From assembly GCA_030390025.1 (NCBI GenBank), contig CM059431.1, forward strand, positions 146,508,001-146,572,000: a DNA stretch of 64,000 nucleotides, given 5' to 3'. The DNA comes from Squalus acanthias (lineage: Eukaryota). Below the pieces are notes generated by a model that made no database searches, was not told the DNA's origin, and worked only from the letters and a program-made list of their open reading frames with translations. Positions 10,805 through 52,480 of the stretch are shown here, one piece after another (positions within the stretch are counted from its first letter, which is position 1; each line of letters opens with the position of its first letter). Both the position numbers and the translations under genes were made by a program.

Positions 10805-11200
10805 TAGGAGCATAAGAGCAAGAGTAGGCCATTTGGCCCCTCGAGCCTATTGCGCCATTCAATGAGATAATGGCCGATCTGGAACCTAATTCCGTATACC
10901 CGCCTTTACCCCATATAATATAAATCTGTCAATTTCTGATTTAAAATTAACATTTACAATCCCTTCATGGCCGTTATGACCTTCCTAAGGTGTGGTGCCC
11001 AGAACGGAACACAGTACTCCAGGTGTGGCCTAACGAGGGCTTCGTATAGATGTAGCATAACTTCGACCCCATCTATTCTAGTCTTCTAGATAGAACGTCC
11101 AGCATTTCATTAGTCTTTTTGATTCGTGTCTGTACCTGTCCTAAATTTTTAAGATCGATGCACATGGACCCCGAATTCTCTTTGGATCTCCACTGTTTCT
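10805..11200 (-). mobile_element. CR1 3' fragments running into the minisatellite
   Basis: Reverse of 3' UTR and of the [17 protein letters not shown] region. Confidence 0.8.
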
Positions 11201-37605: not shown

Positions 37606-39860
37606 GAGTTGCACATTCTAACCACTCTCGCAGTAAAATTAATGGATGGAAAATTTTGGGACCGTGTTACAAACTCTCAAAATGTTTTCCCAGCATACAA
37701 AGTGCTGTGCCAGACGCACTAAAAATGAAACTTTACCCTATAACTTTGTGCAAACTTTTCCTTTACAACATTCAGAACAGAGCTGCCTGGTGGCACAGTA
37801 CATTGGAGCTACGATGCACTTGCCATGGTAGTGGTAGGATGCAGCTTTGCATGAGCGATTCCCCATATAGGACTTGGGCTCCTCATGGAGGCCAAGAACT
37901 TTGCCAGAGGGAAGGTGGAAAACAAATCCAAAAGCACTGCAGAACATTATAATGTGTGCTTAAGCTGCAATTCATACACCTTGAGTGGAATTTAAAAAGA
38001 AAATCACCAGAAAATGCTGGAAATATACAGGGCAGTCAGCATCGGAAAGATTATTTAATTAAAAAGACATTTTAAATCTGTGATATGAAAGATCCCAAAC
38101 ATACCAAAGCTTCTAACCCCCAAAAACTAATAAAAGTTGATTTCCTGTCAACTTTCCCATTATAAATTCCTACGTCCACATTTATAATGGAACTGCCAAG
38201 CTGTAATTACACCATCTCCCCAGTGGCGGTGATCCAATTATGCGCCCCTCTCTAAACCCACTTCACCTGAAGACGGCACGGACTCAACTCCCCATGTGCA
38301 ATGGCATCGGAGAAAATCGAACAGCATCTATAAAATAAGCTTTGTACCTGTCAATTTTCTTCTTCCTCATTGGTTGATGGTGTGTAGTCTATTCTTCTTC
38401 TTTCATTATCTCAAATCATATTGCACAAAACCGTTCTTCCCCTCCCAAAAAATTTATCCCCAACAACACTGCAGCAAAACAGAACTGATAAAACGCCCCA
38501 CCCAAATCTACAGTACCTGCCCTGGGAATATTTGATGTTGCAGTAGAACGAAAGCTATACCCTATATTTAACTCGTACTGTACCTGCCATGAGAGTGTTT
38601 GATTGGACATTGTAGCGGGAGCTTTACTCTGTATATTAAACACATCGAGTGGGAGGGAGTCCAGCTGTTTTGTGACATTTCTCCTGGACGCAGTGTGATT
38701 GGCTACTGTCTCATTTGTGATGTCATCTCGAGACAGGTTTCTGCCTCTGGTTGCACACCATCAGTGGGATGTCAATGCGGGCGGAGCTGGATTTGGCATC
38801 AGATATTGTGAGTGATTTTATTGCCTAGAAATAGGGGCAAAGAAAAGTACGATTTAACATTAAATTAAGTAATTCAAACACGTTGTAAATATTATCAAAT
38901 TAAATATATTAATAATCACGAACACAGTCCCATTGTTTTCCTTTAACAGATTCTATAATCAAGATGAATCATATTTATGTTAAAAGTTTATTTGATTGAT
39001 CAGTATCCTAGGAAGGTGGAGAGAGAGAATTCGAATCATCACTACACTAACTGGGACTGGAGAAAGGTCGTTAGGTTGGGTTCAAGATCCCCAGTGTCGA
39101 CGACCAGAAATGGGATTTTCAACAATGATTGGAAATGTGAGGATGTTTACTGAGAATCTCTTCAGTCGATGATTTTGCTGAGGTGAGAGTCTAACAAGCT
39201 ATTGGGAGAAGTTTAGCATCTGGCACAATACCTGGCCTTTGATGCGTTAATTTGACTGGGAATTCTCTGGTATATAAAACTAACCAATATCTCTAGTTAT
39301 TGACCCACTCACCAGAGGGAATAGTATTTCTGTATCTACTCCATCAAACCTCACATCATCTTGAAAACCTCTATTAGGTCACCTCTTAACTTCCCTGTTC
39401 CAAGGAGAACAGTCCTGACTTTACCAACTTCTCCTCATAAATGAAGACCCTCATCCCTGGTAATATCCTGTTAAAACTCCTCTGTCCCCTTTCCAAGACA
39501 TTTACATATTTCCTGAAGGGTGGTGTTGTAATGGTCAACAATGCTCCAACTGATGCTTTACCAGTGATTTATAAATTTCTAGCATTATCACTTTGCTGTT
39601 ATATTCTGTCCCTCTATTTATGAACCCAAATAAATCATTTCATTTTTAACAAACTTCTCAACTTATCCTGCCACATTTAAGGATCTGTATATGGACAACA
39701 AGGTTTCTCTGATCATTTACAATTTTCAAAATTGTGCCATGTATATTTTACTGTCTTTCCATTTTAGTCCTCCCAAAGAATTTAATCAAAATAGCCTAAT
39801 GGAATGCTGGTATTTATATCCAGAGGACGACAATATAAAGGGGAGAAGTTATTGGCAGTG

Positions 39861-42800
39861 CTCCTTAAAAAAATTACGGCCTCGGCATACCAGCGAAACT
39901 GCCACCTCCTCGACCTTCCAGGCCTCGGTGATCCCTCACCGTCTGACCTCCTCTCCCACATGCTCTCCCTCACCGACGAGAGCCCACCCAGATCCCTCTG
40001 CCGCATGCTGTTCATCCGCCAGCTACCTCTCAGCATCCGCCCAGCGATCGTGGCGTCCGGCCTGACGGACCTGGAACCCCTGGCCGATGAGGCCGACAAG
40101 CTGCTGTCCGCTCACTCCAGCCGCAAAGTCACTCCGGACCTGGCAGCCAATGCCTGGACGCAAACCTCACCGGCCACCACGCGGCCACAAGGACCAGCCA
40201 CCAGGCCCACGGGGCCTTCGCGCCCCACTAACCCCGGCCACTGTTACTACCACGCACAGTTCGGCGCCAGGGCACAACGGTGCACACCTCCCTGCTCTTT
40301 CATGTCCGCCCCCGTACCAGCCCCCGCGATGGCCGTGGGCCACGCGGGCTCCCTGCTGTACGTCACAGATGACAAAACCGGCCGCCGGTTCCTGTGCGAC
40401 ACTGGAGCTCAGCACAGCATCATCCCGGTCTCCTCCCTCGACATCCAAAAGGGCAAACGAGGACCGGCGCTGGCTGCGGCTAATGGCTCGGAAATCCAGA
40501 AGTACGGCACCCGGACAGTCACCCTCGACCTCGCTGGTCGCCGCTACCGATGGGAGTTCATCACTGCCAAGGTGCTCTCCCCTCTCATCGGCGCAGATTT
40601 CCTGTGCGCCCACGGCCTACTGGTAGACATCCCTCGATACCGCCTCGTGGACTTGAACACCATGTCCCCCATCCTGGGCGCCATGGCCCCCCGTCAACCC
40701 GCCGACATGGCATCACAGTGCCACGCCCGGGCCACGGATGACTACTCGGCACTCCTGGGTGAATTCCCAGCCCTTACCAATCCGAACTTCTCCGCGGAGG
40801 CTGCCAAACACGGGGTGGAACACTTTATCCCCACCACAGACCCCCCAGTGTACGCCCACGCCCGTAGGCTGGACCCGGCCAAACTGGAGATCGCGCGGAC
40901 TGGGTTTGCCACCATTGAACAGCTCGGCATCATCCGCCGCTCCAACAGTCCCTGGGCCTCCCCACTCCACATCGCCCCCAAACCAGGCGGGGGTTGGCGC
41001 CCCTGCGGGGATTACCTCCACCTCAACGACGCCACCACCCCGGATCGGTACCCTGTGCCACACATCCAGGACTTCTCGGCTAGACCGGCCGGCCGCTCAG
41101 TCTTTTCCAAGGTCGACCTGGTGCGCGGCTACCACCAAGTCCCTGTCCACCCCGCGGACGTCCCCAAGACGGCCGTAATCATCCCCTTCGGCCTTTTCGA
41201 GTTCCTGTGGATGCCCTTCGGCCTCAAAAACGCGGCCCAGGCATTCCAACGGCTCATGGACTCGGTCCTTCGGGACCCGAAGTACCTGTTCGTCTACCTG
41301 GACGACATCCTGGTAGCCAGTTCCTCCAAGCAGGAACACCTCGAACACCTTCACATCCTGTTCGGGCGCCTCAGCAACCATGGGCTCATCCTCAGCCCAG
41401 CCAAATGCCAGTTCGGCCTGGACAAGATCGACTTCCTTGGCCACCACATCACCCATGCTGGGGCCATTCCCCTGCCCACCAAGGTGCAGGCCGTCCAACA
41501 AATTCCCCGCCCCACCACCATCAAAGGCGTCCAGGAGTTCCTCGAGATGGTGAATTTCTACAAACGCTTCATTCCCAAAGCGGCGTCCCTCATGAGACCC
41601 CTGTATGAAGCCCTCCGGGGCAGGAGCGGCAAGATGGCGGTCGAATGGACGGCAGACGCATCAGCTGCCTTCGACTCCACCAAGACCGCGCTCGCCAACG
41701 CCACCCTGCTCGCGCACCCATGGCCCAATGCCAGGGTAGTGCTCACCACGGACTCCTCCGACCACGCGGTCGGTGCCGTGTATGAGCAGTGGGTCGACGG
41801 CAACTGGCAACCACTTGCCTTCTTCAGCCGCTAACTATGCCCCCCCCGGAGGTCAAGTACAGCACCTTCGACCGCGAGCTCCTCGCGCTGTTCCTGGCGG
41901 TCTGCCATTTTCGTTTTTTGCTGGAGGGCCACCCCTTCACTGCGTTTGTCGACCACAAGCCCCTGACATTCGCAATGGCAAAGACAAGCGACCCCTGGTC
42001 CGCCAGGCAACAGTGCCAGCTCGCAGCGGTGTCCGAGTTCACCACGGACATCCAACACGTCTCTGGCCGAGACAATGTGGTAGCCAACTGCCTCTCCCGC
42101 ACCGCCATCCACGCCGCACACCTGGCAGTCGACTACGCTCAGCTCGCAGCAGACTAGATCACCGACCCTGATCTGCTCTCCGCACCTACCAACCTACCAG
42201 GGCTATGCCTGGCCAACGTCGCCTGTGCCCGACCGCAGTCACGGTCAAGTGTGACATATCCCTATGTCAACCTCGGCCCATCGTCCCAGCGTCCTGGCGC
42301 CACCGGGTATTCGAGATTCTGCACAACCTCTCCCACCCCGGCGCCCACGCATCCATCAAATTGGTAGCCAACCGCTTTGTCTGGCGCGGCCTTCGTAAGG
42401 ATGTGCGTACTTGGGCCAACTCCTGCCTAGCCTGCCAACGGGCCAAGGTGCAGCAACACACGAAAGCACCCCTCCAGGAGTTTACCGTCTCTTCGCGTAG
42501 ATTCGTCCACATCCACGTGGACATCGTCGGGCCCCTGCCGCCGTTGCAAGGCCACACGCACTTGCTGACGATCGTTGACCGCACCACGCGCTGGGCCGAC
42601 GCAATTCCACTGATCTCTACCACCACCGCCGACATCGCCAGAGCCTTCATCAGCACCTGGTTTGTACGGTTTGGCGTCCCCTCTGACATGACTTTGGACA
42701 GAGGTCCGCAATTTACCTCTGAACTCTGGATCGGCGTCGCACGCAATCTCGGGGTGACCATTCACCGCACCACAGCGTACCACCCCCAAGCCAACGGACT

Positions 42801-43400
42801 GTGTGAGTGGTTCCACAGATCCTTGAAGGCATCTCTTCCAGCCAGCCTCCAGGATGGCGCCTGGACCGATCGACTTCCGTGGGTCCTCCTCGGCCTGCGC
42901 ACCGCGGTTAAAGAAGACCTCCACGCATCGGCAGCAGAGCTCATGTACGGTCAGCTGCTGCACGTACCCGGCGAGTTCCTGCCCACCGCCACGACACCCT
43001 GGTCAGCCGACCAGCAACGCCACGACTTCGCCTCACCGGCGCTGCAGTTCGCCCCGGTGCCCATTGCCCGACACGTCGAATCCACCTCACATGTCCCACT
43101 AAGCCTGCACCAGGCACAGTTCGTTTTCATCCGGCACGACGCCCACCGCGGACCCCTTCAACCCCCGTACGATGGGCCCTACAAGGTGCTACATGCTGGG
43201 GACAAATTTTTCACCATGCAAGTGGGCGACAGGACCGAAAAAGTGTTGGTTGACTGACTCAAGCCAGCACACTCGGAGCCCGGTGAGCAGGTCCCTGTAG
43301 CTCGTCCACCGCCACGTGGCCGACCTGCCCTCAAGCCAGTTCACCCGGCTGCTCCACGCCCGGCCGTTCCACGTCCACCGGCGTCCTACAAGAGCTGCTC
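39861..43400 (+). pseudogene. Gypsy gag-pol polyprotein, disrupted
   Basis: Split among ORFs 39804-41834, 41789-42157 and 42205-43257 by frameshifts and stops. Confidence 0.9.
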
Positions 43401-43919: not shown

Positions 43920-44065
43920 ATAAAGAAAGACTTGCATTTATATAGCGCCTTTCTTGACGATCAGTCGTCCCAAAGCTCTTTCTAGCCAATGAAGTACTTT
44001 TTGAAGTAAAGTTACGGTTGTAAGGTACGAAACGCGGCAGCCAATTTGCGCTCAGCAAACTCCCA
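43920..44065 (-). mobile_element. Deu-domain SINE, 3' portion only
   Basis: Reverse-complement match to 54968-55105. Confidence 0.8.
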
Positions 44066-45020
44066 AGTACGGGGCGGTTTTGTGTGCTAGTTGGATGGAT
44101 CAGATGGGCCCCATAATCGTGGACAAGTGGGGGGGGGGGGGCGGGGAGACCGGCCCCGTTACAAGAATTTTTTCGACCCGTGCAGGAGGCGAAAGTCCAA
44201 GTCAGTAGTCTCCTGCACCTCAAGCCACCAGATTCTGAGAATCTAGACGACTTAAAAAGCTGGGGTGACATTGTCGTGTCTCTACAAAAAGAGACTCGAG
44301 ACACGCCAATCTTATACCCGGGCCCCCATCGGGGGCCGTAGAGGTTCAATGAGTCGAGGCCACCCAACCTACATGCCCCCCCCCCGAATACGCTCGTATC
44401 TAATCCACTGCAGCTCTTCTGTCTTGGCTACGAAAAATCCAACCCCATGGCCCCCATCCGAGTTAATCAGGCGGTAGGATCCCAAAACCCTGATATAGGT
44501 GGACTGGGTACGATGGACGAGGCACAGTCTTTTACGCCCCAGGAGAGATCCAGCGTCATCCTCCTCATTCCCGATCTCAAAAGACACAATTCTAACGTCG
44601 AAGTATGGGCATGAATAAGAAGTGCTGCTCGGCACTTTAATTTGTCCATACAAGACGTAAAATATATTATCGAGGTGAAATGTCCCTCTATGGTTTATGG
44701 GGCGTTGGGACACCATGTCCTAAATGCCCCAGCCACGATAGCGGAGTATGAGATCCAATTCGAAGTTTGAAAACTTGGGTTCAGACCGGACTGGACAACG
44801 GCACTGCTACCTGGACGGGGCTCACCGCCCTGCGCCAGAGTCCCGGAGAAAACCCCAATGTGTACATTGATCGAGTAATCGAGCAGTATGAACATTGGGG
44901 CCAGACGAATGACATTCCCGCTAATCACGACGACCCACGGTTTATAGATTGTCTACTCCGGGGACTGGAAAGGCCCTACCAAACCGCCCTCCGAATGAGG
45001 GCCAGCCCCCAGGAGGACAT
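44066..45020 (+). pseudogene. ERV-A gag remnant
   Basis: Major-homology-region-like RQSPGENPNVYIDRV and downstream FIDCLLRGL; upstream frame long but with stops. Confidence 0.7.
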
Positions 45021-45570
45021 ACCTGGTGGGTCACCCTGTGGGTAGGTCCCAACAGTGAGGACCTGCTCTTAGGTATGGATATTCTCCATCAGATAGAGGC
45101 AAATTTGCTCCTAAGTGATCATCTATTGGAAGTAGAGGGGCCCGAAGGGGGGAGATTTCCCTTCCAGGAATATAAAGCCCGACAATGCAGAGTAAAAGCC
45201 CTCCGTCCGGTTAAGCGCACATGGGCGGAGGAAGGACCATGGGGGAGAGTTTGCGAGGCTTTCCCTCTTGCATGGGCCCCCACAAATTAGACTGTGGTAG
45301 AGCGGAGAGGGTCCACGGTTCCTACCACGAGGCCCACCGACAATACCCACTCCGATCAGACGCTCAACGGGCCATTGAGTCCATAGTAGTGGACTTATTC
45401 GAAACCGGTATAGTGACAAAGACCCGCTCCCGTACCAACTCCCCAGTATGGCCAGTGTGGAAACCAGATGGAGACACTGGTGCCAGACGAAGCCGGTGAT
45501 GTGGCCCGGGGAAGAGATTTCCCCATCTCTTGGGGACCCTATGATTAAAAGGAAATAATAACGAGTATTG
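45020..45570 (+). pseudogene. ERV-A pol remnant (protease C-terminus and RT N-terminus only)
   Basis: LLLGMDIL; WAPHKLDCG; RQYPL...LFETGIV...NSPVWPVWKPDG, then homology stops; no YxDD, RNase H or integrase core seen. Confidence 0.8.
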
Positions 45571-45664
45571 ACCTGCCTTTTCTCCCCTATATTTGATCAG
45601 GACCGGATTTCGAAGGACTAAGTTGATTCTTCGGGGCGCTATTTTGCCTGTCTCTTTCTTACAG

Positions 45665-46330
45665 ATGAGCGGGCCCGACCTCAGTGCTGCCACCACTTCC
45701 GGGGATGTCGACCTTTCGGCGGTCCAGTTTTTCGACTTAACCAGGGATCCTGCGAACTCTCATTACTATACCACTCTGACCTTCCCCGGAACTCACCCCT
45801 TGACTCTAGAGTTCCGATTGTCTCCCTTTTGTGGCAGGGCTACAGGACCCCTCGCTCTTCATCCCAACAAAACTCAGAATTTTTTATTCACCCTACCCCG
45901 CGCAGAGGAGATAGACCGGTTCCGAGACACAGCTGCTCTTTGGGAACCGCTGGTGTCGGGACTGGAGGACCTACCCCAGGGGACATCCACCCCCTTTTAT
46001 TGACCCTCCTACCTCCGAAGGAGGACACTGCAACCTGTCTTCACACATTGCCGTCCGACGGCTACTAACCCTCACTGAATTACGATAAGTCAGGTAAGTT
46101 ACATTGAGCCACTGTCACAAGGCCACAGCCTCCGCCTCAACGCCAAGTATGAAGTAGCCTCAACCCTGCTCCGAGCCTTGCGCACACGGCTAATAGCAGG
46201 ACAGACCGAAAGGGGGCTGGTGACAGACAGGGGGTCAGAGGGAGAGAGAAAGAGAGAGCATGCTAGTTACCACAAGCTAGTGCCGAGACTGCTCAACGAA
46301 CTGGACTCTTTATGCCTAGCGGGGGTATAG
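45665..46330 (+). pseudogene. ERV-A unassigned ORF between pol and env (candidate accessory gene)
   Basis: Acceptor tctctttcttacag directly before ATG 45665; open to 46003; same frame continues through TGA 46076-46078 to TAG 46328-46330. Confidence 0.5.
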
Positions 46331-46337
46331 CGTAACG

Positions 46338-48401
46338 ATGGGATGGCTTATCATGGGAATGATGGGGTTACTGTTCGGCGAACAAACAACACCCACCACA
46401 GCGCTGGGGTCGTGCGTCGACCGGCCGGGAGCCCCCTTTTTCTGTGAGATGAACACTGGTCCATACAAAACACACAAGGGGGTCTGTACCAGTAAAATCA
46501 CAGGAAGAAAGGACAGGATATTTTGCCAGAATAATGCGGGGCGTTGGGAAACCCTTATGTACGCCTACCCTAGAGAGATGTCAAGCTTTCGGGATTACAG
46601 AACAATACGAGGAGCCCGGGCTACCACTTGTGATTCACTGCTACTGGGGTGCACATCCCCCCCCCACACCCCCGCCCCCAGTGGTTTCCATGACACAATC
46701 CTCCCCAGAGCGGGAGCCACTGACCTGCTAGTGGGATGGTGTTCATCCGTACTGGGGATATATTGTATGATAACGTGCGTCATGAATTAGTGTCAGTGGT
46801 GCTGAACCTGGCCAACACCGCCCTGCCTGCTTGGTGTTCACCACAAACCCAACAGTTATACCAGCACCTTCTAACACAGGTATTGAAACAAGGCGCGGAT
46901 CGTAGCGGAGGCAGATATAGACAGGGAAGCCGGCGGGCATGGCGACGTAAGAGGTCTTTAGTTAATGATGCAGCGACGGTCTCTAACACCAGCACATCGG
47001 CCGTTAACACCATTGATCTGGCTACCATAGATCAGAAGGTCTGGGATCTGGGTTCCCGCATTAAAGCCATCTTACAAGAGCAGAATAAGAATGAGGGCCA
47101 AGAGTTAAAGGAGGACCAGATATTAACCGTACACCTCCAGGATATAGCTACTGTATTAGAAACACACATGCAGACTATAAAAAGTTAATTAAAAAAGAAT
47201 ACAATGCCTCACAGCAGGCAGCAGCAAACGACGTTTGCAGCACATATGGGAATTGGATAGTGGAGCAAACCCGAGAAAACCTGGAACAGATACAGGCGGG
47301 GAAGGTACCGCTGTGGATTACCAACCAACAGTTGAAAGGGTCCCTGACTAGCGGGCATGCTGGGGCGGGTGTGCTCAAACGTCTCTTGAGTAGCCTCAAT
47401 ATTACAGTTTGTCAATTCCGAGCCATGGTACGGGTATACACCACGTAGGTCAAATCCAACCAGACCGGGGGGGCGGGGGGGGGGGAGGGGTCCTGGGTTT
47501 AGTTTTGGTCGTCCCGGTGATGACACCGGAGACACAAGGGTGGGAGGTATATCAGATACAAAATATTTGTATACTAAAAGATGGCATGCATATATCTTAC
47601 CACAATATATTACCTTACGCAGTGATGGTGAAAGGAAACCGGATGGGTACCAAGCTGGAGGTTATGTGTCACCAGACATGCCATCATCCTGTGTCCGCAT
47701 GCAATCAGCCAAAACCCGCAAGCCCAATGTGATTTCAACAACACAGGCATGGAAATTAACTGCACCATGGAGGCATTGGACGCAGCCTCAAAGCCCACCC
47801 AGGTGGCATACGCCGGCAAAGGCGAATACTGTGTAACGACCAACTTGAAGACTTTTGCGACATCCCCAGTCCAGAGTTCTGCTTCACACCAGCAGTTCCG
47901 GTACGGATTTGACACGAGGAGTTGGTGAACATACACCAGTTTAATATTAACTCTCTTCAAGTGTCTGAAGACATCAAGTATGGATTATGGAACTACATCA
48001 ACACCTTTGGGTATCCGATACCCCCACTGCCCGAACACCTGAGGCAGTTGCGGAAGGAGATACGGCTCTCCCAAGAGGTGTACTATACTCTGCAACAACG
48101 GAACACGGATTTAAAGAAAGATATCGACGCGATCAAGGTGACCACATGGGTGGATGACATTTGGGTCTGGGGACTAAATATACAGATCCATCCATGGATC
48201 CGATTAATTTCACATGTATTAGTCGTGGTGCAGTTAATAGTTGTCCTGACCTTGTTATGTATGACATGCAGGAAATATAAATGGACTCGGGCGAAACAAA
48301 TTGCAAAACAAGTGCTTAAAACTGCTAATGCTTATACTGCACCTACTCCAAGCGTTTCAGATGATGACTTTAACAACTTGTTGGAAAAACCAAGTGTATG
48401 A
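46338..48401 (+). pseudogene. ERV-A env / class I fusion glycoprotein, frameshifted
   Basis: Signal-like MGWLIMGMMGLLFG, furin RRKR (46943-46954), heptad region, Cys-rich middle, second heptad, Trp-rich membrane-proximal segment, TM helix LISHVLVVVQLIVVLTLLC, basic tail. Confidence 0.85.
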
Positions 48402-48760
48402 ATAATGAAGCAATCGTATAATGAATCAGGGAATGCCTAAATATTAACTTTTCTCATCTGATGCATACCTGGTGCCTCAACGGGTGGCCAATTCGATAGG
48501 ATTCACACTAGACCATATGCAACAATTGTGCGGCCTACCTAGAATAGGCAAAGGCCTAGGGGGGTGGGGGGAAGTATAGAACGAATTGGGGGGAGGGGGT
48601 TACAGGAAAACCTTCATCATTCGTGCTGTTTGATCTGGGCAAACCTATATGCGTTTCTGACATACTATAAACCCACCAGCTTATCACACTTATCGTAGCG
48701 TAGACAGCACACTCCCCAACCCCGCTTTAAGGGTCCTTTCCAGGAGTTGGAAGGGGGAAC

Positions 48761-49466
48761 TGAAAGGTCCAGCTTGTTCCCAATGAATTCTGGGATACTT
48801 GACTATGTTAACCCTCTATTTACCCATAGATTGTGTTTAGCTGACTGAAGCACATTTGCAGACTGCAAGACGCCACTTCACTTATCAAACTTCGGAATGT
48901 GTGTATTCGCAGCCTCAGTAAAGCCATTGTCTAAACACGGCCTGTCCTCCCAGGAAATAAGGGTACAATTAACAACCAACATTGTTCCAGTCACAGGGTA
49001 CATGAATCACTGCGGCCTTGTAGCCATCCTGCTTGTTCGACAGTTAAGGATAAAACATATTTTCTCAAACTATAAACTATGCCGACAACGGGGAAGAGAT
49101 AAAAGCAGGAATGTGGTGAGTAGGATGAGACAACCAACATCTGTGACTGGCATGGTCAGAGGGTATCCGAGTTTAAGGGGAGGGCCCGACAGTTGAGTGA
49201 CTAACCACATAAGCCAATAAAGAGTAACTGTTGTGTCACTGTTTGTACGTGTACGTCCACATTCTGTAGTAGGTGGGCGTTGCTTATAGAATTCTATAAC
49301 TTGAATGAACCGCTACTTGTCCCTCGAGAGTGCACCCCTAGCTTGAGGAAGCTGAGTGGCTCATCCTTGTGCACAAGTCTTTTGGTTATTGTAATAAATC
49401 CTGAACTTGTCCTCAATTCCGCCTCCATCTGGGGTTTCTCCAAATTCGAATCTAACACAGATTTCA
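48761..49466 (+). repeat. ERV-A 3' LTR
   Basis: After the PPT; tgaaa...tttca terminal inverted repeat; ccaat near 49214, TATA-like near 49285, aataaa near 49393. Confidence 0.75.
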
Positions 49467-50190
49467 CAAAGGGTTTTAGCAGTTGCAAGGCTTTTATTAA
49501 AGAGCTACAGTTTTAAAGCATAACCAGATGTTACATATGGTTTAAGCTGAGTATAACAGTCGTACAACCCGTGACAGTAGAGAGCGATCTACGACTCCCG
49601 AATCGGAATGACACGACCGGACGCACGGGGAGGCAGTACGGTGGTCTTGGATTGGGTGGATTCCTGCAGTCTGCTGCAGCGGTCACTTCCATTGGGTCAC
49701 CTCTCAAGCTGTTGGAGGTGTTAGGCCAACTCAGAGGCTAAACTTGACCAAAGTATTAGTCTGTAGCCATCTCGGCGAAGCCTTTTCCCCTAACTGACTG
49801 ATTTCCTCTCTCGATGGTCTATATTTATAGTTATTTCGGTGGGATGGTAATCACCTGGTGTCAATGATTTGATCCCCCATCCTATTGTCCAATTGTGAAG
49901 CGGGAAAGCATCCCGCACCGTCCCTTTCGGCATGACTGACAAGGCCTCCGTCTTATCTTTCTGAGGCATGTTTTGTTATGTTTCTTTAAGGACATTGTAT
50001 GACTTTTCGGCTTCATTTTTGTCTATTATCCCACCACCCTGTGTTGTTTTGCATTTTACGATTCCCTTATCACTTCTATTTTTCTTTTGATGCTTGACAT
50101 TCGACCTTGCTCGCATTTTTGCTTTCTGTTCCCAGCTGCATGTTTGTCAGTCTCTGTTCTAAGGGTTAAAATCCATCGATGAAACTAACA
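49467..50190 (-). repeat. ERV-B-family LTR, lacking the last about 35 bp of U5
   Basis: Reverse-complement homology to 63216-63918 (ataactataaatatagac, gaagtgaccgctgcagcag, ctgtagctctttaataaaa). Confidence 0.88.
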
Positions 50191-52480
50191 GCTACTTCTA
50201 ACAACTGGGAGAAGGCGATTGAGAAGGATTCTTGCGATGACTTTCCCTGTGGCAGACAGCAGGGAAAGCCCTCTGTAATTACCACAATCGGACTTTTCAC
50301 CTTTCTTGAAGATGGTAACAATTACGAAGTCTCTGAGATCGCCTGGCATGCTCTCCTCCTTCCAGATAAGAGAAATTAGTTCATGAATTCGCACCAGTAG
50401 TGCTTCTCCGCCATGCTTTAGTGCCTCGGCAGGGATTCCATCTGTTCCTGAGACCTTCTTGTTCTTCAGTTGTCGGATGGCCTTTTCAACCTCATGCCGG
50501 TCTGGGGTTGTGCTGAGATGGTGGCGGGTAGCATGCTGCGGGATGGAGTTGAGGACACTCGCGTCGAAGACAGACTCTTGGTTCAGGCGATCTTCGAAGT
50601 ACTCCTTCCAGCGGGCACTGACTGCCTCTCTGACCTTGATGAGTACCTCTTCGTTCTTGGCCAGCAGTGGTGTCGGACCTTGGGTGCTTGGGTCGTAGGT
50701 GGTCTTGAGTGCACTAAAGAATCCACGCACATCGTTGTTCTCGGCTAGCTGCTGGATCTCCTCCAATTTCTCTTTTATGGTGAAGCCTACCCCATGGAGG
50801 CGGCGTTCTTCTTCAAGATTGCCTTTCCAGAAGAAAGTGTAGCCACCGCCTTGCTCCTTGAGCAGGCCTTCATTTATTGTGGCGACGTCAATGCCGAGAA
50901 GTCTGAGCTCTCGGGCAATGGTAGCATTACGGCATTACTGTCTGTCACTCATGCGGTTGTACATGAGGGTTCTGACTTTCCAGGTCCCGAACTTCATTTT
51001 AAAGGGTGAAAGATGCCTGTGTGTGAATTATTCTAACGTGGGGTGGCCGTTGCACACCAACTACCACACGGGCTTGACAGAGCAAGGTCTTGGTCCAATG
51101 GAAAGGGGAACCAAGACGATTGGAGACCAAGCTCTGCTACAACGGCCTCGCACACACACACCATCTGTTCTTTAGGTCGCGAGTTTTTTGTTGGACCTCG
51201 GCCTTCTGGCCTCTGTAGAGCTGCTTTCTTGTTCTCGAGTTCTGTTCTGATTCCAGATCAGGAATGCCTTGCGCTTGCAGCTTATTAGCTCCTGGATCTC
51301 CTGGTCATTCTCATCAAACCAGTCTTGTTGTTTCCTGGTCGAGTGACCGAGCGTCTCTTCACAGGTGTTGATTATGGAGGCCTCTTGTGCAGACCAGGTG
51401 CTGTGGACACTCTGTTTCTCTGCATCACTGGGAGTCGTTAGGTTGTTTGTGAGGCACAGGCTGAATAGAGTTTTCTTAGCAGGGTCTTTGCGTGCTCCAG
51501 CGTTGATTTTCCTGCGGCATTGTTTCTGTTGCCACCGCTATTTTGGGGCTACATTGATGGAGATCACAGAACGGATTAGGCGGTGGTCTGTCCAGCAGTC
51601 ATCAGATCCTGTCATGGCACAGGTGACGCATACGTCCTTGCGGTCCCTCGCTCGGACGATGACGTAGCCCAGCAGATGGCAGTGCTTGGAGCGAGGGTTC
51701 TGCCATGAAGCCCTGTACTTGTCTCTCTGATGGAACAAGGTTTTGGTTATGACAAGGCCATGTTTTAAGCATTTCGACAGAAGGAGCGTACCGTTGGAGT
51801 TGGCTTTCCCTACCCGCTCTCTGCCGAGCACACCTCCCCAGAGGTCTGTGTCCTATCCAACTCCGGCATTAAATTCGCCAAGGAGGTTCAGCTTGTCACC
51901 TGTTGGGACTCGGGACAGGGATTGTTCAAGGCTGGAGTAGAATTCCTCTTTGGTCTCGTCTGTGGCTTCCAGTGTTGGGGTGTACTCACTGATGACGGTA
52001 GTGCACTGGTTCAGGGCTAGGGTGAGCCGAAGAGTCATGAGGCGCTCGTTCATACCGCGAGGAGAGTCTCTGAGGCGCCCAAATAGTTCATTTTTTATGG
52101 TGAAGCCTACCCCATGGAGGCGGCGTTCTTCTTCAAGATTGCCTTTCCAGAAGAAAGTGTAGCCAACGCCTTGCTCCTTGAGCAGGCCTTCATTTATTGT
52201 GGCGATGTCAATGTCGAAAATTCTGAGCTCTCGGGCAATGGTAGCAGTACAGTATTACTGTCTGTCACTCATGGGGTTGTACATGATGGTTCTGACTTTC
52301 CAGGTCCCGAACTTCATTTTAAAGGGTGAAAGATGCATGTTTGTGAATTCTTCTAACGTGGGGTGGCCGTTGCACACCAACTACCACACGGGCTTGACAG
52401 AGCAAGGTCTTGGTCCAATGCAAAGGGGAACCAAAACGATTGGAGACCAGGCTCTGCTACAACGGCCTCGCACACACACA
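50191..52480 (-). mobile_element. RTE-clade LINE, 5' half, with an internal copy of its own 5' end
   Basis: MKFGTWKVRT start, NERLMTLRL, LLGEFNA, WTDHRL, GTDGIPAEALK, GNYRGLSLLS; 50773-51160 duplicates 52093-52480. Confidence 0.9.

Follow-up and report, generated by a model that had tools for sequence, protein, structure and literature searches.

Organisation of the provirus and of the frame between pol and env

The window, by which we mean the whole 64,000-nucleotide stretch of Squalus acanthias DNA that was analysed, carries a truncated provirus on its forward strand. An extra reading frame, here called ORF X, lies between the remains of pol and an env-like gene. The features of the locus are as follows.

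44063..45045, + strand: gag remnant, frameshifted; an 89% match to the gag of another copy begins at 44063
45009..45538, + strand: protease and the start of reverse transcriptase (RT), fused via a large deletion to the C-terminal tail of integrase
45641..45664, + strand: splice acceptor, from a GT..AG joint to the homologous base in two of four runs and from alignment with sister copies
45665..46330, + strand: ORF X, 221 codons, broken by TGA 46001-46003 and TGA 46076-46078
45665..45738, + strand: 5′ part of ORF X, for which local alignment shows homology with the sister lineage's non-coding env leader
46091..46099, + strand: candidate 5′ splice site matching the consensus, in phase 0 behind codon 143 of ORF X
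46237..46258, + strand: GA-repeat tract, variable in length from copy to copy, which puts the C-terminal tail in different frames
46289..46319, + strand: leucine-rich decapeptide resembling an export signal, codons 209-218, ending at the weak candidate second acceptor
46318..46319, + strand: AG of the weak candidate second acceptor, 12 of 20 pyrimidines
46338..48401, + strand: env-like gene, frameshifted, its ATG in a strong context
48761..49457, + strand: 3′ LTR, preceded by a purine-rich tract and matching the paired LTRs of other copies

This copy has neither a 5′ LTR, nor a primer-binding site, nor a leader donor, and most of its pol is deleted. The deletion junction falls at about 45466-45472, where a blastn alignment against L031, whose pol is complete, skips from L031:5755 to L031:8568. 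In other copies within this 3.7 Gb genome the order is LTR, primer site, donor about 27 nt past the LTR, gag, in-frame stop, protease, RT, tether, RNase H, integrase, ORF X, env and LTR. Gag of another copy contains two CCHC zinc knuckles, and the env-like gene encodes a hydrophobic N-terminus, an RRKR site and a C-terminal membrane segment. Paired LTRs are 96.9-99.5% identical in the four of six copies where a pair was found.

An accessory gene had been proposed here by the original prediction, whose coordinates all check: ORF X starts at ATG 45665 and ends with TAG 46328-46330, leaving a gap of 7 nt before the env ATG at 46338. The two internal stops that it reported are the TGA codons listed above. 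Its polypyrimidine-CAG acceptor is likewise present, with the pyrimidine tract and CAG ending at 45664 and abutting the ATG; at 17 of 20 pyrimidines, this site ties for first among the 145 YAG sites in 44063-48760. The frame is not the C-terminus of integrase, which ends about 320 nt upstream of ORF X in a copy with full pol. The other identity that had been considered, an env leader, holds for the first ~25 codons and fails for the remainder. ORF X is not a plain env leader: in the window the two frames do not agree, and the region read in the env frame contains stops (101 of 684 cells).

Other repeats share the window. A Ty3/gypsy-like pol at 39795-43257 immediately precedes the truncated provirus, and the duplicate L003 has it too. 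A tandem array of about 170 units with a period of 23 nt begins at 11054, and two LINE-like endonuclease/RT fragments, recognised by eye, lie on the reverse strand at 50185-52254.

Genomic copies of ORF X and the selection acting on them

A protein search for ORF X returned at least 152 matches, fragments included (150 scored of 258 candidates). We examined 50 loci, comprising the 30 best DNA matches and 20 picked by hand from the protein matches for their divergence. The ATG stands directly at the acceptor in 47 of these; two copies have no 5′ end and one reads ATA. In twenty copies the frame stays open over 185 codons or more; seven of these are near-identical, and one runs into env via a deletion. 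When an open copy was shuffled 2000 times with its dinucleotides preserved, a plus-strand frame open for this length appeared in six of the shuffles. Only 4 of the 50 copies carry the frame unbroken to the C-terminal tail, owing to the variable length of the GA tract and to other breaks. Over codons 144-185 (1228 cells), there are 4 stops in the ORF X frame, whereas the other frames contain 136 and 53.

The copy in the window is a pseudogene that could yield at most a 112-residue fragment of the protein. Its breaks probably predate a duplication, since L002 and L003, which match the window at 97-98% identity along the full locus, stay open as far as the same codon.

The genome also contains several derived or recombinant forms. 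Copies L012-L020, L023 and L061 (for example L023:1566-2369) keep ORF X, while the 5′ half of their env has been replaced by other sequence that includes a piece of a high-copy env-like element (at least 150 matches). In two copies of this subfamily the ORF X frame reaches 267 codons and ends in a hydrophobic tail (hydropathy 1.96). Copies L043-L056 and L060 share a 37-nt deletion near codon 15 that truncates ORF X to about 25 codons, yet this subfamily was amplified further, probably as a non-autonomous element. In L059, a natural deletion has brought codons 1 to ~150 of ORF X into one frame with the later part of env (398 open codons). At L035:6830-9186, ORF X and env lie behind the pol of a different retroviral family, which suggests recombination between families. 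The related families L063, L064, L071 and L074 have many near-identical copies, and one pol clade among them pairs with visibly different env types; in L063, about 1.26 kb without a long ORF separates integrase from the env ORF.

Purifying selection on the frame had been suggested as a check on the gene, and it is what we found. Pairwise Nei-Gojobori estimates over codons 1-185, in which the pairs are not independent, gave a dN/dS of 0.46 (0.34-0.62) for the 31 copies that remained after 19 near-duplicates were dropped. The other two plus-strand frames of the same set gave 0.99 and 0.84. Pieces of env and integrase, each in its own smaller set of copies, both gave 0.36. For 10 matched copies the values were 0.42 for ORF X and 0.36 for env, falling to 0.23 and 0.18 when only differences shared by at least two copies were counted. 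The method returns values near one where selection should be absent, as judged from 11 copies whose ORF X is ended by the early 37-nt deletion (0.84) and from seven env-replaced copies (1.12). By segment, only codons 28-85 are clearly below one; the intervals for codons 86-143, codons 144-185 and the tail all reach it.

These ratios bear on the reading in which the protein is idle, the region doing no more than regulate env at the level of translation or RNA, or the frame being merely inherited from one ancestor. Such a reading would fit the lack of any homolog in the searches described below, the poor structure models (pLDDT 32 and 36) and the frequent frameshifts of the tail. However, the excess of synonymous over non-synonymous change comes close to that in env and is confined to the ORF X frame, whereas lineages with a dead ORF X or a dead env evolve neutrally. 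The dN/dS values thus largely refute an idle or merely inherited frame, which we regard as very improbable. ORF X is a real gene of this virus family, maintained by selection.

The env acceptor, a gene-less sister lineage and the expression of ORF X

The same genome holds a sister lineage whose integrase is 76-81% identical to that of the ORF X lineage. There, a homologous acceptor is followed by ACG in place of the ATG, by a leader of about 105 nt, and then by the env ATG. Acceptor and env are joined in one piece in 38 of 41 sister-lineage matches, and the env ATG is the first after the acceptor, at +104 to +106, in 20 of the 21 distinct loci read. The acceptor had been described as belonging to ORF X itself. 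This did not hold up: because its homolog directly precedes env in a lineage that lacks ORF X, it is by position the env acceptor. The two lineages have a common primer site and related LTRs, and form sister clades in both env and integrase trees, by a quick method and by FastTree; rows with short hits were omitted from these trees, which contain few outgroups for polarity.

That ORF X is reached by splicing, as the original prediction had it, is borne out in two of four probable RNA runs. Contigs of X2 (study P1) and X5 (study P2) contain a GT..AG joint from L031:3187 to L031:8975, which connects the leader donor exactly to the ORF X ATG. The joint is absent from runs X1 and X6. The short side of the joint measures only 27 nt, the RNA nature of the runs is a guess, none being registered as RNA, and the runs come from organisms with under a fifth of the query's words. 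In the genome, the leader motif is followed by G at 89 places and by any other letter at none. A pre-joined DNA copy is thus not seen in the assembly. Two pol-region joints known from the subfamily of the window are also present in contigs of X1, X2 and X6.

Part of ORF X can be traced to the leader of the sister. Its first ~75 nt (about 25 codons) align to the sister env leader with a score of 80, against a maximum of 42 in 2000 shuffles, and its 3′ end gave no significant alignment to that leader. The remaining ~590 nt have a virus-like composition, and the base composition of the insert matches the rest of the virus. ORF X is also missing from the nearest env outgroup, L072, whose leader is 69 nt long and contains no ATG. 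In the integrase tree L072 falls in a different place, and the resemblance of its leader to that of the sister is not significant (P 0.16). Among 20 stretches from related families, no ORF X homolog was found at E<0.2, the two best hits being to the leader of the sister. Direct repeats at both ends of ORF X, which would favour a deletion in the sister, are degenerate and not significant (P 0.19-0.95).

From these comparisons, ORF X was probably gained in the env leader rather than lost by the sister. Gain is the more parsimonious course, not a proven one, given that the sister, L072 and the other related families examined are all without ORF X. We also consider, as a rather speculative extension, that the gene was born when a start codon arising exactly at the env acceptor converted the non-coding env leader, together with ~590 nt of other sequence, into a new protein of no known fold. 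The sister would then represent the pre-gene state, and an optional second splice could fuse the protein to Env as a long, functional leader peptide.

ORF X would be the first cistron of a singly spliced env mRNA, with Env likely translated from the same message. Ribosomes could reach the strong env ATG, 7 nt downstream of ORF X, by leaky scanning past its weak start or by reinitiation. In the spliced message, the ORF X start is flanked by C at -3 and A at +4, and the env start by A at -3 and G at +4. Three to five ATGs precede env, one of them with G at -3, and in most copies only short out-of-frame ORFs start at ATGs inside ORF X. In one copy, ORF X has 4 ATGs per 660 nt against 11 in integrase and 15 in env, a scarcity within the range of its dinucleotide shuffles (P 0.31-0.76). 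Leaky scanning or reinitiation is, by a modest measure, the likelier source of Env.

Two other routes to Env deserve consideration. The first acceptor might serve ORF X alone, with env translated from a separate mRNA that joins the leader to the weak acceptor at 46318-46319, 18 nt upstream of the env ATG. The three to five upstream ATGs would impede scanning, and the candidate AG is retained in 23 of 24 env-bearing tails, though it occupies a synonymous position of ORF X, and is missing in the env-replaced copies. Yet that loss amounts to one inherited event, and with its 12 of 20 pyrimidines the site is not in the top 14 of the 145. We consider a separate env message unlikely. Less probable still is double splicing from 46093/46094 to 46320, which would fuse ORF X codons 1-143 in frame to Env as a cleaved, independently working leader peptide resembling that of MMTV, whose signal peptide of 98 residues is reported to be functional (PMC8725593).

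The donor for such a fusion had been called perfect. It is indeed present as the full consensus CAG|GTAAGT at 46091-46099, and both sites are in phase 0 relative to ORF X and env, an agreement that has a 1 in 3 chance. Across the family, however, the donor is far from uniform: GT is read in 31 of the 50 copies, a different reading was scored in 17, two of them through a pattern mis-hit, and two gave no call. The site reads AT in env-bearing copies whose ORF X is open and in most members of the subfamily with the 37-nt deletion. The contigs of X1 and X6 cross it unspliced, and none of the joints listed (15 of 24) starts from it. A genome search for the internal donor followed by a pyrimidine gave two matches, the same as its control. 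The scarcity of stops in codons 144-185 further suggests that the unspliced frame matters. Our preferred reading remains a single spliced message that carries ORF X followed by env.

The protein, its retroviral setting and what the gene means

By hydropathy, the ORF X protein is soluble; it has neutral charge and no membrane segment (best 19-residue hydropathy 0.73). The original prediction had recognised no gag, pol or env motif in it, and the searches agree. At E<=1, Pfam gave no family for two open copies. No homolog was found in PHROGs, IMG/VR, JGI metagenomes, the ESM Atlas (searched twice) or PDB sequences, where a profile search gave one match at E 0.35. A set of 5.8 billion proteins yielded none among 320 candidates at near lengths and none among 7989 at longer lengths. 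Two HMMER matches in a 1.84-billion set were rejected, both being repeat proteins whose scores are sums of 7-8-bit repeats. A phage-fibre-type repeat, P0115, resembles residues ~97-144 (at most 13 bits, hhalign probability 69%); it was rejected and kept as a weak lead only, because the resemblance is not significant after selection from that library. AlphaFold2 models, which had been suggested as a check, were obtained, and neither showed a confident fold. With these two models, at pLDDT 32 and 36, Foldseek found nothing at E<=0.001 and VIA nothing at Z>=5.

A function can at present be argued only indirectly. Residues 209-218 match a class 1a/1b export-signal pattern whose hydrophobic positions are mostly kept across copies, and an RRR lies near residue 118. 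Together, these could point to a Rev/Rex-like adaptor that exports unspliced viral RNA via the leucine-rich C-terminal motif and the short arginine patch. However, the export pattern arises in 33% of shuffles, only 4 of 50 copies reach it in an unbroken frame, and the arginine patch is reduced in one subfamily. The sister lineage was amplified while lacking the gene altogether. We therefore hold an essential Rev-like role to be less likely than a dispensable role in host interaction, since the sister multiplied without ORF X, and the adaptor itself to be improbable. A role as host antagonist is a tentative suggestion, drawn entirely from dispensability, position and co-expression with Env.

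The RT-tether piece of the family scores 105-107 bits to p80-type RT chains, which we take to be those of MLV and XMRV, against 56-61 bits to foamy chains. The relative P0004 shows the same order, at 350 against 180 bits, and together with P0006 it is the nearest named RT relative; both are uncharacterised cyprinid pol proteins at 52-53% identity. Gag and pro-pol lie in one frame, separated by an in-frame stop (L031:5057-5059). The pol of the family contains RT_RNaseH_2 and RNase_H domains, and an MLVIN_C match reached 25.9 bits, below its cut-off of 29.2. The primer site, identical in all five copies read, is presumably tRNA-Leu-like. By a similarity ranking rather than a tree of reference genera, the family appears class I-like (gamma- or epsilon-like), its RT nearer to MLV than to foamy or lentiviral enzymes; a foamy-like RT is not what it carries. 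In the window copy, there is no plus-strand ORF of 80 codons between the env stop and the LTR, where 3′ ORFs of epsilonretrovirus type would be sought, and the family is not filed in the genus Epsilonretrovirus. Lokiretroviruses are described, in excerpts of PMC7947760, as having an Env similar to paramyxovirus F (PF00523) and an RT sister to that of all retroviruses; the frameshifted env pieces of the present family gave no PF00523 or PDB match, and its RT ranks with MLV.

Several known arrangements resemble this one. In HIV-1 vpu/env, as excerpted from PMC2657110, an accessory ORF with a weak start context lies upstream of env on the spliced env message. Unlike Vpu, ORF X has about 220 residues, belongs to another retroviral class, contains three to five internal ATGs, and is without a membrane segment or a Vpu-like N-terminal anchor. 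In WDSV, a fish-type complex retrovirus, orf C ends 7 nt before the start of a structural gene and has no transcript of its own (PMC3185748, excerpts). That gene is gag, however, and the walleye viruses use tRNA-His and also encode orf A and orf B, whereas the ORF X family has a single extra ORF, between pol and env, and a different primer site. Closest in position are ORF-1 of DrFV-2 and PpERV-1 and acc3/acc4 of AciFLERV, which the excerpted texts of PMC5210030 and PMC5512871 present as selected orphan ORFs between pol and env. Those of the foamy-like teleost ERVs differ in having 334-465 codons, and AciFLERV is Lys-primed (same excerpts). The ORF X family, for its part, has an RT nearer to MLV, Gag zinc knuckles and an in-frame stop before pro; the separation from the foamy-like ORFs follows their published descriptions.

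The excerpted text of PMC5210030 gives infectious fish retroviruses no pol-env ORF of this kind. That of a preprint (10.1101/2021.11.23.469661) states that epsilon-related class I ERVs with a gamma-type env carry no accessory gene, and that of a review (PMC4977317) that epsilon-like fish ERVs occasionally have extra ORFs. Excerpts of PMC4422223, PMC7947760 and PMC12193657 describe no gene like ORF X. The suggestion that the protein may be undescribed stands, in that the main texts searched gave no description of it; supplements could hold related elements. What is new here is a pol-env accessory ORF in an MLV-like (class I) lineage, such ORFs being already known in foamy-like fish ERVs.

On balance, we favour ORF X as a selected accessory gene that was likely gained within the env leader. 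It was likely translated as the leading cistron of the env mRNA, Env likely came from that transcript too, and the product was most likely a dispensable, soluble counter-defence protein. An MLV-like lineage thus carried a genuine orphan accessory gene on its env transcript, and this genome also contains a sister lineage that lacks the gene. The origins of retroviral accessory genes are largely open, and a gene-less ancestor is rarely at hand. In this genome, one selected gene sets apart two sister lineages whose primer site and env acceptor are the same and whose LTRs are related. Part of the coding sequence of that gene is traceable to the env 5′ UTR, and a gain of complexity therefore becomes testable within one genome. 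The finding extends the vpu/env type of arrangement to an MLV-like, fish-type lineage, and the orphan protein may indicate an antiviral target in the host.
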